Source of the DNA: Bacillota bacterium | GTDB taxonomy: Bacteria > Bacillota > Clostridia > Oscillospirales > CAG-382 | DNA: 64,000 nucleotides | Direction of reading: 5' to 3' | Assembly (NCBI GenBank): GCA_029550965.1 | Contig: JAKPGJ010000015.1 | Location: 2,139 to 66,138, forward strand | Shown here: piece by piece, positions 13,999 to 59,281 of the stretch | Layout: each line of letters begins with the position of its first letter | Numbering within the stretch: position 1 is the stretch's first letter | The notes under the pieces: generated by a model | The model's database searches: none | What the model was told of the DNA's origin: nothing | What the model saw: only the letters and a program-made list of their open reading frames with translations | Made by a program: the position numbers and the translations under genes

Positions 13999-14069
13999 GA
14001 CCAAATCTCCTAATCATTTATTTTTACTAAAATAACAACGATGAGCCGAAAAACGCGCAAAAAAACAAT

Positions 14070-14360
14070 AAAAAAAGCTCTGTTTTGCCGCAAGCATGGA
14101 CAGAGCCGGTAAGTTTCAAATTATCATTACAATGTCTAACAACATCGTCTCTTGATAACGGCGAGAAACCCGATCACGCCTACTTAAATCCATACAAAGC
14201 GCCTGTATGCGCGAACTTTTATATGAATTTGTTCAACGGACAGCTCCGGGGTGAGCTCACGTCTGCACTGCGTACTGCCTCGCACCATACGGCAGCTCTC
14301 TGAAAACGCATGAACAACAAAAATGTTGTTTACATCCGCTTGTTCCCCATCAATGCTTTT
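14070..14360 (-). promoter_or_regulatory. T-box-like leader RNA (Stem I with CUC specifier) ending in an intrinsic terminator; canonical T-box sequence not recognisable
   Basis: Read on the minus strand, in order. K-turn base: AGC-AUU-GA-UGGGG pairing with CCCCG-GA-GCU. Specifier-loop 3' side GAG-CUC-A (CUC at 14255-14253). AG bulge AGAGA. Stem GCUGCC/GGCAG enclosing distal loop GUAUGGUGCGA. GUUGAAC follows Stem I. CCGUUA F-box-like element. Stem III-like ACGAUGU/ACAUUGU. Terminator GCUCUGU...ACAGAGC + U7 (14070-14106). AAUUUGAAACUUACCGGC occupies the position where AAUNNGGGUGGUACCGCG is expected. Confidence 0.55.
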
Positions 14361-15647: not shown

Positions 15648-16100
15648 TCACTCGACTTCCGAGATTTCGCTGACGCCGAACTGTCGCCAGCTTTCCGACT
15701 CATTCTTTAAAGCGAAGGTTATGGAAAGCTTTTTTTCTTCCGCGTTATAAGCGAGCGTGATAAACACGTCGCCTTTCTGCGCGGTTTTCGGGTAATCGCC
15801 GTTGCCGAACTGCAATCCCGAAGCGGCAAGTTTCGCCGCGTAAGCGTCTAAAGCCGATTTTTCGACATTCTGAGCATACACCACCGTGCTTGTCCCGGAA
15901 ACCATTACGGAATAGATATCCCCTTCGAATTTCGGAACGCCTTTCGTAAGGTCGTTATTCGGCCATTTCGTCTGAACGATCGGATTATAGCCGTTTGATT
16001 CCTCGTTCGATTCGTTCAGGGATATGATAATCAATACCGCGCATAACACCACAACAACAAACACGACGGCCATGAAGGCAAAATGAAGTTTGTTCTTCAT
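15648..16100 (-). CDS. Hypothetical membrane-anchored extracellular protein
   Basis: Probable start MKNKLHFAFMAVVFVVVVLCAVLIIISL at 16100, 5 nt after the upstream stop. One N-terminal TM. No family recognised. Confidence 0.6.
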   Translation of the reverse strand: MKNKLHFAFMAVVFVVVVLCAVLIIISLNESNEESNGYNPIVQTKWPNNDLTKGVPKFEGDIYSVMVSGTSTVVYAQNVEKSALDAYAAKLAASGLQFGNGDYPKTAQKGDVFITLAYNAEEKKLSITFALKNESESWRQFGVSEISEVE

Positions 16101-44166: not shown

Positions 44167-44254
44167 AACACTTGACAAATCAAAATGAGCGCGTATAATA
44201 ATAGCAATAGCGCAAGCTATTCTTTACAATCGGCGTTTTGAAGCGACGCCGTAC

Positions 44255-44340
44255 ATAACAACGGGGTGCTGAGAAATCGGCTGAGATTATACCCATGGAA
44301 CCTGATGCGGGTAATGCCGCCGTAGGAAACATAGTTACAG
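44255..44340 (+). promoter_or_regulatory. TPP (THI-box) riboswitch aptamer
   Basis: GGGGUGCUGAGA...CUGAGA..ACCC...AACCUGAUGCGGGUAAUGCCGCCGUAGGAAAC read directly, upstream of the thiT-like gene. Confidence 0.9.
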
Positions 44341-44362
44341 TTAGTCTATTCGTCTGTCTATG

Positions 44363-55169: not shown

Positions 55170-55400
55170 CAAACAAAGCCCTCGCTTCGGAGGGGAATTG
55201 TACCTTCGCCGATTACTCGCGGCTCTTTGTACGGTTTCGTCCGGGCAAGTCTTCTGACTTAAGCATCAAACACCGGCCGCAGTCTTCCCAGCGTGCGCCA
55301 GTGACATCATTGCGGCCGATTAGCTCTCACAGCGACGAGTTCGTGGGGGACTCTGCCCGGTAAAAAACCGAACATACACCCCGCTTCCTTTTTAAGCCGA
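55170..55400 (-). promoter_or_regulatory. Cobalamin riboswitch with putative terminator
   Basis: Minus strand reads AAAAGGAAGCGGGGUGUAUGUUCGG...CGCUGUGAG...GUCACUGGCGCACGCUGGGAAGACUG...UUAAGUCAGAAGACUUGCCCGG, with the B12 box at 55244-55260. This is followed by the hairpin ccctc-cgaagc-gaggg and a U-rich tract (55160-55195). Confidence 0.8.
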
Positions 55401-55441
55401 GCGTTTTATAAAACAGCCCGGCACCCAGACGCCTAAGTATT

Positions 55442-55487
55442 GAAAAAACCAACCGTTTTGCGGCGGTCTGCCGCAAACCGGCTGGTT
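55442..55487 (-). terminator. Intrinsic terminator after the kinase-like gene
   Basis: Minus strand ccggtttgcggc-aga-ccgccgcaaaacgg(ttgg) followed by tttttt. Confidence 0.8.
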
Positions 55488-55511: not shown

Positions 55512-56588
55512 TTAATCAAGTATGTCCGCAAACTCGATATCAATCAGATTGTTGATCTCGTTTATTTTGGCTTCATTCGTCCTTACGGTAAAAACCGTAT
55601 TGTCCCCTTTCTCAACCGGAAGCGACATGGTAAACTGCAGACGCGACAAATCCGCTCCCGGTGCGGTGATGCTGAAGTTCCACAAATAATACTCGCACAG
55701 CGATTTTATCAGCAGCAGCTCGAAATACATCCATCCGTCGGGGTTATAAAAGCTTTCGGCCTCATACTCGCCCTCGCAGATAAATCTTGCGGTTTTTTCC
55801 GGCAGGATGGTGTCCGTCATGACGGAGAAGTATATTTTCTCGTTGATAACGTTGATATCCACCTGCAGTTTTCCGCTCTGCGAAATGCGGATCGCGTTGT
55901 AGATGATCAGGCACAGCAGCATGTTGAAATCCGGCTCGCAGATCATCGCGGTGAGCCTGCCGAACGTGTCGGCGTTATTGTTGAAGGTAATCTGAATGCC
56001 GAGCGGGCGCAGCGTGTCCCGCAGCGATGTAACGATCGAAGTAACAATCGACCCTACGTCGCAGACTTTCGTTTTTGTGTTTTTTACGCCGTTGATAATG
56101 CGCAGAAATTCGCTGATGTGCTGCTGCGACCGAATGATCCGATTGGATTTGTGCTTGATCAGCTCGGATATGCCTTTCTCGCCGTTTTCGACAGAAAGCG
56201 CGCTCATCTGACACAATATAGACTCCGTAAGGTCAGAATTGAGCTTGACAAGCTCGTGTATTCTGTTTTGCAAGGTCGCGGAAAGCGTCCGCAGTCCAAC
56301 AAGGCAGCAGTCTTCCCCTTTATACACGAACGCGCCGTATAAAGCGGGAAGCTCGATGCTGACCCTGATGGTTTCTCCTGTTTTCATCTGAACAATACGC
56401 CGGTAATCCGCTGTGGTAAGATGATTCTTAATGCACGAACCAAGTCTCAACGGAATGAGCCGGTTCAGGCAGAATGCGTTTTTGTAGCAAATCTTGTAGT
56501 CTTTGTCCAACAAAAGCGCCGGGTATGCCAGTTTGTCCGCGAGCGTTTTCATGTTCTCAATACTTCCGTTTCCGGTTAATTCCCGCAT
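55512..56588 (-). CDS. Cytoplasmic histidine-kinase-like protein with degenerate H-box and ATP-binding motifs
   Basis: ATG at 56588 lies 8 nt after GGGAGGGG. The N-terminal part is PAS-like and the middle is helical. The C-terminal part has a GHKL-like layout (N-box-like LIIYNAIRIS), but the DxGxG position reads TDTILP and the GxGLGL position reads DGWMYFEL. The opposite-strand 300-aa ORF has an Arg-rich antisense-type composition. Confidence 0.55.
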   Translation of the reverse strand: MRELTGNGSIENMKTLADKLAYPALLLDKDYKICYKNAFCLNRLIPLRLGSCIKNHLTTADYRRIVQMKTGETIRVSIELPALYGAFVYKGEDCCLVGLRTLSATLQNRIHELVKLNSDLTESILCQMSALSVENGEKGISELIKHKSNRIIRSQQHISEFLRIINGVKNTKTKVCDVGSIVTSIVTSLRDTLRPLGIQITFNNNADTFGRLTAMICEPDFNMLLCLIIYNAIRISQSGKLQVDINVINEKIYFSVMTDTILPEKTARFICEGEYEAESFYNPDGWMYFELLLIKSLCEYYLWNFSITAPGADLSRLQFTMSLPVEKGDNTVFTVRTNEAKINEINNLIDIEFADILD

Positions 56589-56696
56589 TTTTATCCCCTC
56601 CCTGTTGTAAAAAGCCATGATGCATGGGGTATTCCATTATTAGCATAACATACTTCCAGGCAAAAAACAATAGCTTTTCTGGGCAGGGGGATCCAT

Positions 56697-57533
56697 TTAG
56701 CGCAGGTCCGCTTCTTTCAGCAGCCTGCCTTCTTTTATAATCGCGTAGAGCTTTTCTTTGTTGCCTTCCCGAATGGCGTCCCGGTAAGCTGTGAGGTTGG
56801 CGATCAGCGTGTCGATCTCCCTGCACAGATTTTCGCCGTTATAGAGAAACAGCTCGCTCCACAGGTTTTCGTCCGCGGCGGCAACCCGAGAAACATCCAT
56901 AAAGCTGCCCGCGGAAAACCCTTTTCTTTCCCGGCAGGTGGGCGATTTTACATAAGCGCCGGCAAGCACATGGGGCAGCTGCGAAGTATAGGCGATGATC
57001 CGGTCGTGTTTCTCCGGGGTCGAAACCGTTACCCTGCCGGCCTTTAAAATCCGAATAAACTCCTGCATTACGAAGACGGCTCTTTCCGGCGTGTGTTCGG
57101 TCGGGGTAATGATATAGCTCGCCCCGACAAACAGCCCGGCGTCCGCGTTCGCATAGCCGCCTTTTTCCTTGCCCGCCATGGGATGCCCGCCGATGAAGGT
57201 CAAACCGTGCTGTGCGCATATCTTTTCGCATTCTAAAACGATATGCCTTTTTACGCCGCATACGTCCGTAACCACCGTTTCTTTCGAAAACCGCCCGCCG
57301 TTCTCCTGCAAAAATGCAACGGTCGCGTCGGGCGGGAACGCGATGATTGCGAGGTCTGCGCACAGCGGGCTTTGTTTGTCCCATATGCAGTCGATGGTTC
57401 CGTCCTTTAACGCCTGCTCGGCGACGCCGATGCTTCGGTTCCAGCCGATAACTTTGATATCCGAATTTTGCTTGACGGCTTTTGCGATCGACGCGCCGAT
57501 CAGCCCAAGCCCAAACACAGCGATGCTTTTCAA
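56697..57533 (-). CDS. tyrA: Prephenate dehydrogenase
   Basis: IAVFGLGLIGASIAKAV Rossmann motif and a TyrA-type body (GGHPMAGKE, SQLPHVLA). Confidence 0.9.
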   Translation of the reverse strand: MKSIAVFGLGLIGASIAKAVKQNSDIKVIGWNRSIGVAEQALKDGTIDCIWDKQSPLCADLAIIAFPPDATVAFLQENGGRFSKETVVTDVCGVKRHIVLECEKICAQHGLTFIGGHPMAGKEKGGYANADAGLFVGASYIITPTEHTPERAVFVMQEFIRILKAGRVTVSTPEKHDRIIAYTSQLPHVLAGAYVKSPTCRERKGFSAGSFMDVSRVAAADENLWSELFLYNGENLCREIDTLIANLTAYRDAIREGNKEKLYAIIKEGRLLKEADLR

Positions 57534-57550: not shown

Positions 57551-58594
57551 TTATATGTCAACCGCTGCTTTGAAAACCGAAACTTTTCTGTCCACCGCGG
57601 CGGCAATCTTTTTCACATTATTCACAACCGAATCGAACATATCCGGCGTCAGGGACTGCGAACCGTCGCAAAGCGCTTTCGCCGGATTGTTATGCACTTC
57701 GATAATCAGTCCGTCCGCGCCTGCGGCGACCGCAGCCATCGAAAGCGGCTCGACCAGCCAGGGAATTCCGGCGGCGTGAGACGGGTCGATGAAAACCGGC
57801 AGATGCGACAGTTTCTTTAAAATCGGAACCGCGGAAATATCCAGCGTGTTGCGGGTTTTCGTCTCAAAGGTGCGGATGCCGCGCTCGCAGAGAATAACGT
57901 TTTCGTTGCCGTTCGACATGATGTACTCGGCGCTCATCAGCAGCTCTTCGATCGTGTTGGCAAGCCCGCGCTTGAGCAGCACCGGGCGGCGCTGTTTGCC
58001 CAACGCTTTTAAAAGGTCAAAGTTCTGCATATTTCTCGCGCCGACCTGAATGATGTCGACGTCCTCAAACAGCTCGAGCTGGGAGACCGACATAACCTCG
58101 CTGATAATCGGAAGTCCGGTTCTCTTTCTTGCCAGTCTTAACAGTTTCAGACCGTCCGCGCCCATGCCCTGAAACGCGTACGGAGAGGTTCTGGGTTTGA
58201 ACGCGCCGCCGCGCAAAATGACGGCGCCGGATTTCTTTACGGCTTCCGCGACTTCCGTAACCTGTTCTTCGCTCTCAACCGAGCAGGGGCCCGCGATCAG
58301 CGTAACGCTTCCGTCGCCGATTTTCAAGCCGTTTTCCAGCGTAATCACCGTATCGTCGGGATGGAATTTGCGGTTCGCTTTCTTATACGGCTCCTGAACC
58401 CGCTTTACTTCCTGCACGATTTCCTGCGCGCGGATAGAGTCCTCGTCCACCGCCGACGTGTCGCCGATCAGGCCGAGAACCACGCTGTCGCGGCCGACCG
58501 AAACGTGAATGCCGACGTTGTATTTTTTCTCAAGGTACTCTTTAAATTCATTGATTTTGCTTTCGGTTTGGTTGTTTTTCAGAACGATGATCAT
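57551..58594 (-). CDS. aroF: 3-deoxy-7-phosphoheptulonate (DAHP) synthase, type I-beta with N-terminal ferredoxin-like regulatory domain
   Basis: About 70-aa N-terminal regulatory domain, then a KDO8P/DAHPS barrel (IAGPCSVES, GAFKPRTSPY, VGARNMQN, DPSHA). Confidence 0.9.
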   Translation of the reverse strand: MIIVLKNNQTESKINEFKEYLEKKYNVGIHVSVGRDSVVLGLIGDTSAVDEDSIRAQEIVQEVKRVQEPYKKANRKFHPDDTVITLENGLKIGDGSVTLIAGPCSVESEEQVTEVAEAVKKSGAVILRGGAFKPRTSPYAFQGMGADGLKLLRLARKRTGLPIISEVMSVSQLELFEDVDIIQVGARNMQNFDLLKALGKQRRPVLLKRGLANTIEELLMSAEYIMSNGNENVILCERGIRTFETKTRNTLDISAVPILKKLSHLPVFIDPSHAAGIPWLVEPLSMAAVAAGADGLIIEVHNNPAKALCDGSQSLTPDMFDSVVNNVKKIAAAVDRKVSVFKAAVDI

Positions 58595-58632
58595 AAATGT
58601 TCTTCTCCTTCCGTTGTCTTTCGTATTGGTAT

Positions 58633-58664
58633 AAAAAAACGGAGCCCACTGCGTGAGCTCCGTA
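58633..58664 (-). terminator. Attenuator terminator upstream of aroF
   Basis: Minus strand ACGGAGCUCAC-GCA-GUGGGCUCCGU followed by U7 (58639-58633), ending 39 nt before the aroF ATG. Confidence 0.8.
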
Positions 58665-58684
58665 TAATCTCCCTACTATTGCTC

Positions 58685-58795
58685 CTATTCGGGTATACAG
58701 ACCATCTTCACAGCAGTGTTATTACACGACGAAAAGACCGCATAATAATAGCGGCCGCCGTAATAGTAATAACCCTTTTTGTTTGCTGTAAACAT
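58685..58795 (-). CDS. Tyr-rich leader peptide (36 aa) of the aroF-tyrA operon
   Basis: Hand translation of the minus strand: ATG TTT ACA GCA AAC AAA AAG GGT TAT TAC TAT TAC GGC GGC CGC TAT TAT TAT GCG GTC TTT TCG TCG TGT AAT AAC ACT GCT GTG AAG ATG GTC TGT ATA CCC GAA TAG, giving MFTANKKGYYYYGGRYYYAVFSSCNNTAVKMVCIPE. AGGAGAATAAGG lies upstream. The ORF is below the size cutoff of the supplied track. Confidence 0.65.
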   Translation of the reverse strand: MFTANKKGYYYYGGRYYYAVFSSCNNTAVKMVCIPE

Positions 58796-58816
58796 AAGTC
58801 TGCCTTATTCTCCTGA

Positions 58817-59215
58817 TTATTCAGATTCGGTTTCGTAAAGCGATTCGGTAGAAGACGTATCGGTCGAACTCGAAGTCTCGCTGGTAACTGCCGCCGCAGA
58901 GCTTGTCGCCGCGGAATTTACAGCCGAAGTAGACGACTCCTCGTTATCCTGTCTTACCGTAACGGTGTGAACAATGTAAAGCGAAAGTACAAGCGCTGCG
59001 AATACGATGCCTAAATACATAGTCGCTTTGTTCAGCATTCTTGCTTTGCTTTTTCTTTTATTTTTGCCGTAGAAAGTTTCTGAAGCACCGCCGCTGATCG
59101 TACCCGACAGACCTCTTCTGATGCTCTGCTGCATCATGATCAGTACTATAAGAACAATTCCTAAAATACCCAATAGTCCGCCGATAACGTATTCGAGCAC
59201 GCTTAATCCGTTCAT
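58817..59215 (-). CDS. secG: Preprotein translocase subunit SecG with long Ser/Thr-rich acidic C-terminal tail
   Basis: ATG at 59215 after GGAGGA. The two-TM SecG core reads (MNGLSVLEYVIGGLLGILGIVLIVLIMMQQ...GLSGTISGG...). This is followed by a tail of about 50 aa: SSTSAVNSAATSSAAAVTSETSSSTDTSSTESLYETESE. Confidence 0.8.
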   Translation of the reverse strand: MNGLSVLEYVIGGLLGILGIVLIVLIMMQQSIRRGLSGTISGGASETFYGKNKRKSKARMLNKATMYLGIVFAALVLSLYIVHTVTVRQDNEESSTSAVNSAATSSAAAVTSETSSSTDTSSTESLYETESE

Positions 59216-59281
59216 ATTTATAAATCCTCCGATTATAAGCAATTCATTTAGGCATGATATCCGCAATATGCCGCAGTCTCC

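Follow-up and report, generated by a model that had tools for sequence, protein, structure and literature searches.

Leader-peptide attenuation of transcription is usually taught as a proteobacterial mechanism, and the Firmicutes are said to rely on T-boxes and on TRAP. Here we describe a putative attenuator of this kind upstream of aroF-tyrA in a 64,000-nucleotide stretch of DNA from a member of the Clostridia (Bacillota bacterium, Oscillospirales, CAG-382; contig JAKPGJ010000015.1 of assembly GCA_029550965.1), which we will call the window. aroF encodes 3-deoxy-D-arabino-heptulosonate 7-phosphate (DAHP) synthase and tyrA encodes prephenate dehydrogenase. The spacer between secG and aroF, which is 222 nt on the minus strand, houses a 36-codon open reading frame (ORF) with an ATG start and a stop codon. 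Tyrosine accounts for 7 of the 36 codons, in runs of four and three, just ahead of aroF-tyrA. Given what is conserved in related loci, we think it very likely that this element is a ribosome-mediated (leader-peptide) transcription attenuator of aroF-tyrA. The upstream ORF (uORF) and the intrinsic terminator that follows it are well supported, and an antiterminator is predicted. The codons suggest that the attenuator would be tuned mainly to the supply of tyrosyl-tRNA.

In Corynebacterium glutamicum, the aroF operon is attenuated through aroR, whose product is a leader peptide with Phe-Tyr-Phe; this was tested experimentally (Neshat 2014, via PMC11802643; first noted in PMC4046766), and the attenuator is reported to respond to limitation for phenylalanine and not for tyrosine (PMC11802643). 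As in the window, a short ORF with aromatic codons lies upstream of the gene for DAHP synthase, and stalling raises transcription (which is what we propose for the window). In contrast to the window, aroR is from the Actinobacteria and has three mixed Phe/Tyr codons; the window has seven Tyr codons in two runs before aroF-tyrA and belongs to a family in the Clostridia. The likeness is a functional analogy only. A second system is the uORFC-13-1 motif, which was predicted upstream of aroF with 24 representatives, from Acholeplasma and environmental sequences only, and for which attenuation by decoding speed was proposed (Brewer et al. 2021, PMC8632094). Compared by description, it shares with the window a uORF with a ribosome binding site and a start codon upstream of aroF, an intrinsic terminator directly after, and an additional base-paired substructure. 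It differs in that it has a U-run that codes for at least one Phe, has no Tyr runs, and is found outside of the Oscillospirales and other Clostridia that the window's relatives come from. An earlier note on this stretch, made from the sequence alone, had set a Tyr-specific leader peptide apart from the textbook cases and so overstated its novelty, as an aroF leader peptide with Phe/Tyr codons was known from C. glutamicum and a Phe-codon uORF had been predicted in Acholeplasma. This kind of attenuator is already known and is not a new principle. What is new is the Tyr-dominated codon set, the wide family in the Clostridia without a match in Rfam, and the display of regulatory codons in a hairpin loop.

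The trpL, pheL, hisL, leuL, thrL, and ilvL leaders of E. coli share with the predicted structures of the window's element a four-segment logic, with the regulatory codons in segment 1 and with alternative pairings 1:2, 2:3, and 3:4. In these classical attenuators, as in the window, the stop codon lies a few tens of nucleotides before the terminator, and the antiterminator (a candidate in the window) is weaker than the terminator. (In the trp attenuator, the 2:3 pairing is at about -11.7 kcal/mol and the 3:4 pairing is at about -20 kcal/mol, versus -14 and -18 kcal/mol in the window.) The window's leader is unlike them in having its second codon run in a hairpin loop and its AUG sequestered, and it has no similarity to them in sequence or by Rfam models. 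A T-box with a Tyr specifier would also sense the charging of tRNA-Tyr and act through a terminator and an antiterminator ahead of amino-acid genes, but a T-box binds the tRNA directly and does not require translation. In 2003, Panina et al. reportedly described T-boxes, not leader peptides, in the aromatic regulons of low-GC Gram-positive bacteria. His and Leu leader peptides are documented in the Firmicutes, and to our knowledge there is no established example of a Tyr-specific leader-peptide attenuator. For aroF-tyrA of E. coli itself, an attenuator responding to tyr-tRNA stayed a hypothesis and was never established (Camakaris 1980). In C. difficile 630, premature termination was mapped experimentally in the 5' untranslated region of aroF, which had no similarity to known riboregulators (Fuchs et al. 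2021, PMC8237595). This resembles the window in that a transcript ends prematurely upstream of aroF in the Clostridia; Fuchs and colleagues reported no mechanism and no uORF. Our literature search, which had most subscription journals outside its coverage, turned up no description of an aroF leader family in the Clostridia or of a leader with Tyr runs.

A search of Rfam 15 with cmscan identified no family for the leader region, either at the gathering threshold (across the whole window) or at E-values up to 10 (across 58450-58950). Four matches to 58450-58950 (mir-2582, OxyS, McaS, and the psbA 3'UTR) were spurious, with scores of 15.3-19.2 bits as compared to gathering thresholds of 42-75 bits. 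No T-box model matched 58450-58950 even at E-values up to 10, and none of the known leader-peptide families of Rfam (presumably the Trp, Phe, His, Leu, Thr, and leu/phe leaders) was among the matches to the window.

The leader and its relatives upstream of aroF

Using the window's AroF as the query, we obtained 80 loci from reference genomes (best identity 72%), which include Hominenteromicrobium, Acutalibacteraceae, Oscillospiraceae, Lachnospiraceae, Clostridium sensu stricto, Acetobacterium, and Christensenella. We also retrieved 80 loci from metagenomes, the best of which (L081) has 84% AroF identity. The leader of the window has these features:

58685..58795, minus strand: leader ORF of 36 codons plus stop, encoding MFTANKKGYYYYGGRYYYAVFSSCNNTAVKMVCIPE; read directly, with homologous uORFs in L081 and in the 10 further nearest relatives
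58760..58771, minus strand: Tyr run 1, codons 9-12 (UAU UAC UAU UAC), part of the long hairpin's upper stem, on its 5' side; (N)YYY in L081, where one TAC has become TAT
58742..58750, minus strand: Tyr run 2, codons 16-18 (UAU UAU UAU), which is the 9-nt loop of the apical hairpin P2; YYY in L081, where one TAT has become TAC
58803..58806, minus strand: weak Shine-Dalgarno element AAGG, 7 nt upstream of the leader's ATG; read from the sequence

The leader also has two Phe codons. The leader ORF, its Tyr runs, the terminator, and the flanking genes are all present as the earlier note described them, with coordinates that agree to within 1 nt. Its Shine-Dalgarno sequence calls for one correction: AGGAG (58814-58810, minus strand) is stronger but sits 14 nt from the ATG and is probably too far away, so the usable element is the weaker AAGG.

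We considered an upstream region to have an aromatic uORF if, within 350 nt upstream of aroF, there was an ORF with an ATG start and at least 5 Phe, Tyr, or Trp residues among 8 consecutive residues. Aromatic uORFs were present in 53 of 80 upstream regions (the genome loci and the window's own locus, minus one locus with too little upstream sequence), as compared to 4 of 80 on the reverse strand and 7 of 400 shuffled sequences. Examples include MTIRSFTAAYYYYYYFTGKSNSDFCCENEVVSLR (L026), MSKLLSYTTSYFYFFNYYFFSKSSSDLCCKKV (L010), MSSAAQFYFYYYYFFTQKK (L066), and, in C. tyrobutyricum (L034), ...FSFSWGYYYFSAGYLFCKK.... An intrinsic terminator lies between the uORF's stop codon and aroF in 48 of the 53 loci with aromatic uORFs, and the median distance from the stop to the stem is 35 nt; among the loci without an aromatic uORF, just 3 of 18 have a terminator. 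Furthermore, a Shine-Dalgarno-like motif is found at -16..-5 of the ATG in 65 of 85 unique leaders (76%), versus 18% of control ATGs. Isolates with an aromatic leader and a terminator ahead of aroF include Clostridium tyrobutyricum, Acetobacterium carbinolicum, and Blautia hominis. The proposal that a leader-peptide attenuator lies upstream of aroF-tyrA thus held up in the comparison, as orthologous leaders keep the uORF, the aromatic runs, and the terminator.

The leaders from Clostridium sensu stricto have Trp codons (UGG) beside the Phe and Tyr codons, as in FYFSWGYFYF. Because Trp codons are found among the Phe and Tyr codons, an amino-acid logic is favored over a shared RNA motif.

The comparison with L081 shows how the leader has changed over a short distance. 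The leader of L081 encodes MTIKLTAVTENYYYGSRYYYAVFSSYCSLL and keeps a core of YYY-G-S-R-YYY-AVFSS. Within the core, there are three synonymous changes between the window and L081 (TAC to TAT, TAT to TAC, and TCG to TCA), one change from Tyr to Asn, one from Gly to Ser, and an in-frame indel of 3 nt. The ATG has been relocated and is still in frame. A 1-nt indel shifts the frame after codon 24, so the C-terminal part of the peptide differs between the two, while the nucleotide string CUGCUGUGAA is retained. Even between these two leaders, the N- and C-termini diverge, and the aromatic core and its reading frame are retained. This is the pattern that would be expected of a translated, non-functional peptide with constraints at the RNA level.

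Alternatively, the hairpin and its U-tract could be a constitutive terminator for secG, with the Tyr-rich ORF being a chance frame in the spacer. There are just 21 nt between the stop codon of secG and the ATG of the leader (58796-58816, minus strand), with no promoter-like site between them, and the terminator probably ends many secG transcripts. But among all 160 loci, secG is upstream of aroF in the window alone. The upstream gene of L081 is in divergent orientation; the leader, aroF, and tyrA form the unit there, and convergent ORFs follow. Yet the leader and terminator of L081 are homologous to those of the window. Because the synteny with secG is unique to the window and the upstream gene in L081 is divergent, the leader and the terminator belong to aroF and not to secG, and the idea that the hairpin is a secG terminator only is rejected. 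An aromatic uORF that is followed by a terminator, as in 48 of the 53 related loci with uORFs and far above the controls, is also not what a chance frame would give. We consider this explanation to be extremely unlikely. The terminator of the attenuator may double as a terminator for secG, and translation of the leader could be coupled to secG termination.

RNA structure and the proposed switch

The predicted fold of the leader RNA (58815-58625) is at -64.4 kcal/mol, with z = -5.0 relative to dinucleotide shuffles. Across the family, the uORF regions are structured as well (mean z = -2.5). Four elements of the structure matter for the argument:

58697..58803, minus strand: long hairpin (segments 1:2, putative anti-antiterminator), -41 kcal/mol; takes in nearly the whole uORF
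58736..58756, minus strand: apical hairpin P2, GGCCGC-loop-GCGGUC, -8.8 kcal/mol, followed by UUUUCG
58653..58712, minus strand: candidate antiterminator (segments 2:3), GUGA..G.UCUGUAUACCC (58711-58691) with GGG..UAUACGGA.C.UCAC (58673-58653)
58632..58663, minus strand: intrinsic terminator (segments 3:4), 11-bp stem, GCA loop, and U7; -18 kcal/mol

The terminator consists of ACGGAGCTCAC-GCA-GTGGGCTCCGT (also given as ACGGAGCUCAC-GCA-GUGGGCUCCGU) at 58663-58639 and T7 (U7 in the RNA) at 58638-58632. Its stem has 7 G-C pairs out of 11, begins 21 nt after the leader's stop codon, and lies 37 nt ahead of the start of aroF. Explicit counting of pairs in the 12 nearest leaders found that 92% of cells were paired and that 9 of the 11 pairs had changed on both sides. 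None of 500 shuffles scored as high, and register-shifted controls had 30-44% of cells paired. Of the two hairpins in which the earlier note suggested looking for compensatory changes, the terminator shows them; the candidate antiterminator does not keep its 5' half in L081.

In the long hairpin, the lower stem pairs 58803-58784 (which includes the AUG) with 58716-58697, a duplex of -22.5 kcal/mol. The 3' strand of this hairpin doubles as the 5' half of the proposed antiterminator and would be out of reach unless the hairpin were opened. By analogy, the long hairpin would correspond to the classical 1:2 element, or anti-antiterminator. The ribosome-stall model of the earlier note has its core supported by our analysis, but it was incomplete, as it missed this -41 kcal/mol hairpin, in which the AUG is sequestered along with the 5' half of the antiterminator.

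The apical hairpin P2 carries the second Tyr run in its loop. When the uORF core was aligned with MAFFT and passed to RNAalifold, no consensus structure emerged because the arms of P2 are out of register between rows. We then used an alignment-free test for hairpins (and limited the counting of pairs to the terminator). By this test, P2 is significant in the window's leader (P = 0.00 versus shuffles), and its place is held by different stem sequences in L081, L083, L003, L005, L008, L002, L001, L085, and L086. A hairpin with at least two aromatic codons in its loop was found at P <= 0.05 in 26 of 85 leaders, as compared to about 4 expected, and the signal is strong in the window's clade. P2 is missing from many members of the family that retain the uORF and the terminator. 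Together with the UUUUCG that follows, P2 resembles a hairpin-dependent pause site for RNA polymerase, and we propose it as a candidate for one, with regulatory codons displayed in the loop.

Could these hairpins instead be the site for a regulatory protein (an antiterminator akin to TRAP or PyrR) or for a small ligand (a riboswitch), with the ORF being incidental? The leader is strongly structured (z of -5), P2 covaries by eye and displays a loop rich in U and A, and a conserved stretch, UUUU(C)G(U)CGUGC, follows P2, all of which would fit. On the other hand, the in-frame ATG, the Shine-Dalgarno-like motif, and the stop codon before the terminator are kept across very different sequences; the regulatory positions track the identity of the codons (UUY, UAY, or UGG) rather than a common RNA motif; and the changes between the window and L081 are synonymous or in frame. 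Nor would such a site be expected to lose P2 in many members that have the uORF and the terminator, and no riboswitch or T-box of Rfam matches even at E-values up to 10. A protein or ligand site is very unlikely in our view, and we prefer attenuation by a translating ribosome.

In leaders from different clades (L010, L014, L016, L026, L030, L056, L062, L072, L089, and L160), the aromatic block ends with Phe-Cys-Cys or a similar Cys-Cys (UUC UGC UGC), about 80-260 nt upstream of aroF. The conserved UUUU(C)G(U)CGUGC is the equivalent of this stretch in the window's clade. It is probably a motif at the level of the RNA (a strand of segment 2) and not of the peptide.

Our proposed mechanism is as follows. 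If the leader is not translated, or if the ribosome reaches the stop codon, then the long hairpin and/or the ribosome would withhold segment 2 (58716-58691) from the 5' arm of the terminator; the terminator would form and transcription would end at about 58632. If charged tRNA-Tyr is scarce, the ribosome would stall at codons 9-12 or 16-18 and the long hairpin would be opened. Its freed 3' strand could then pair with 58673-58653 before the 3' arm of the terminator is made, and the polymerase would continue into aroF-tyrA. P2 and the U-stretch would probably pause the polymerase, which would keep transcription and translation coupled. To hold the lower stem open, steric exclusion may be required, or else a 30S subunit or second ribosome at the AUG.

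The folding predictions bear out part of this. The antiterminator pairing that was originally proposed, UCUGUAUACCC (58701-58691) with GGG(AGAU)UAUACGGA (58673-58659), is present, at -9.6 kcal/mol; with the GUGA...UCAC extension, the isolated hairpin is at -14.1 kcal/mol and spans the whole 5' arm of the terminator. The terminator is part of the predicted fold both when no ribosome is present and when one sits at the stop codon. If all of the sequence upstream of a ribosome at Tyr12 or Tyr18 is masked and the 3' arm of the terminator has not been made, then the minimum free energy structure contains the extended antiterminator, which sequesters 10 of the 11 nt of the terminator's 5' arm. Once the 3' arm has been made, the conformation with the terminator is more stable by about 9 kcal/mol (-30.8 versus -21.5 kcal/mol), so only a kinetic switch would work, as in classical attenuators.

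Several observations weigh against this proposal. If only a 28-nt footprint at the Tyr codons is masked, the lower stem closes again behind the ribosome and the terminator is still formed, so the predicted switch between structures is seen only with everything upstream masked. At -14.1 kcal/mol, the antiterminator is weaker than the terminator (-18 kcal/mol) and also weaker than the lower stem (-22.5 kcal/mol). The energy of the antiterminator duplex is no better than with shuffled arms (z about 0), and the sequestration of the terminator's arm is just marginal when compared to shuffled upstream sequence (P = 0.06). The lack of conservation in L081, mentioned above, also belongs here, as do the weakness of the leader's Shine-Dalgarno element (AAGG), the sequestration of the AUG in the folded RNA, and our scan between secG and the leader, which found no promoter-like site.

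In L081, another segment, which comprises the last codons of the uORF and its stop codon, is predicted to pair with the terminator's arm, and for 7 of 12 relatives the terminator's 5' arm has its best partner at the 3' end of the uORF. There is also a single hint of compensation, from U-A to C-G: UCUGU:ACGGA in the window is CCUGU:ACGGG in L003 and L083. So, the pairing claimed in the earlier note exists, but its energy does not stand out from shuffled sequences and its 5' half is not kept in L081. The specific antiterminator pairing is plausible but weak.

These same difficulties suggest another explanation, in which the uORF is translated and regulatory but acts by another route: by termination by Rho when transcription and translation are uncoupled, by effects on the stability of the mRNA, or as a sensor of translation stress that is not specific to Tyr. 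Besides the antiterminator's lack of statistical support, the sequestration of the AUG by the lower stem suggests an additional layer of control at translation; the window's leader has two Phe codons as well; and the Phe-Tyr-Phe leader of C. glutamicum responded to Phe, not Tyr. However, a covarying intrinsic terminator at a median of 35 nt past the uORF's stop codon is the classical geometry, and the codon composition tracks the content of the operon (see below), which argues for amino-acid specificity. Another route is improbable, and attenuation through the intrinsic terminator remains our preferred explanation.

Amino-acid specificity and operon content

In most of the relatives, leaders with a mix of Phe and Tyr codons lie ahead of aroF-tyrA-aroB-aroA. 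The window and L081 combine Tyr-only runs with the two-gene unit aroF-tyrA. More broadly, the share of Tyr among the leader's aromatic residues has a median of 0.50 if tyrA follows aroF (n = 63) and of 0.29 if aroB or pheA follows (n = 10), with P = 0.0004 by a one-sided Mann-Whitney test across 85 unique leaders, from loci that are not phylogenetically independent. This is a trend, not a rule. Indeed, the Tyr-only leader of L076 precedes aroF-tyrA-aroB-aroA, so Tyr specificity is not strictly tied to an operon for the Tyr branch. This is a further point against our proposal for the window, and it rules out the strict rule that a Tyr-only leader implies a Tyr-branch-only operon. The specificity of the window's element for Tyr is suggested by its codons together with the content of its operon.

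At one end of the range of codon mixes is Phe-only (L160) and at the other is Tyr-only (the window, L081, L076, and L040), with the Phe/Tyr/Trp leaders of Clostridium sensu stricto in between. We lean towards the view, by a modest degree, that the Tyr-specific attenuator is one tuning state of a large and uncatalogued family of aroF leader peptides across the Clostridia, whose codon mix is adjusted by lineage to the content of the operon.

Of the related loci that we sampled, which are mostly from the Clostridia, about two thirds have an aromatic leader and a terminator ahead of aroF. If these are attenuators, then leader-peptide attenuation would be mainstream in the Clostridia, alongside T-boxes, and not a rarity. 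If confirmed, a member that is tuned to Tyr would join the known specificities of attenuators, and the family would offer a natural series in which the composition of the regulatory codons co-varies with operon content. If the aroF leader of C. difficile belongs to the family, this might explain its unexplained premature termination. Confirmation would also improve the annotation of genomes from the gut microbiome, where these uORFs are unannotated, and would single out a cis element for removal where Clostridia or Acetobacterium are engineered to make aromatic compounds.

A few individual loci illustrate the diversity of these leaders. The leader of L160, MNNLYFAAVFFFFFGFFFFKKDVFCCGRFR, is nearly all Phe, with 12 Phe and 1 Tyr; it lies at -167..-74 relative to aroF, before aroF-tyrA, and is the opposite extreme to the Tyr-only leader of the window. 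L011 and L019 are two aroF paralogues from one metagenome-assembled genome, CAJJZS01. One is in aroF-aroB-aroA-aroC with a Phe-rich leader, and the other is in aroF-tyrA and has no leader. This suggests a division of labor between DAHP synthases that are regulated differently. L022 is on a contig that was binned as Treponema, and it has an aromatic leader (…AYFYYGYFYFS…, with the uORF at -302..-161 relative to aroF) and a terminator ahead of aroF-tyrA, which suggests either horizontal transfer from the Clostridia or mis-binning.

Flanking genes and the wider window

The genes around the leader, as identified by Pfam and NCBIfam or (for the ribosome binding site) from the sequence, are as follows:

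58817-59266, minus strand: secG, encoding SecG
58605-58610, minus strand: ribosome binding site of aroF, AAGGAG
57551..58594, minus strand: aroF, encoding a DAHP synthase of the NF006421 subfamily with an N-terminal ferredoxin-like regulatory domain (PF18152)
56697..57533, minus strand: tyrA, encoding prephenate dehydrogenase; the unit has no aromatic-pathway genes beyond aroF and this one

The operon is limited to aroF-tyrA in both the window and L081. Promoter scans of L081 were uninformative, as for the window. Directly downstream of tyrA in the window, where the relatives have aroB-aroA, there is an ORF of 368 amino acids (55512-56618, minus strand), which has no match in Pfam or NCBIfam and no homologue in the 160 loci that we fetched.

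We also scanned the whole window for further uORFs that are rich in a single amino acid. A small Thr-rich ORF (MIINTAHNTTTTNTTAMKAK; 16024-16086, plus strand) is due to chance, as it is antisense within long ORFs on the minus strand. So is a second small ORF rich in aromatic residues (14014-14097, minus strand), which merely reads through the U-tract of a terminator.

Two riboswitches are the sole matches to Rfam 15 above the gathering threshold in the whole window:

55227-55443, minus strand: cobalamin riboswitch (Rfam, 89 bits), just downstream of the 368-amino-acid ORF
44252-44348, plus strand: thiamine pyrophosphate (TPP) riboswitch (Rfam, 64 bits)

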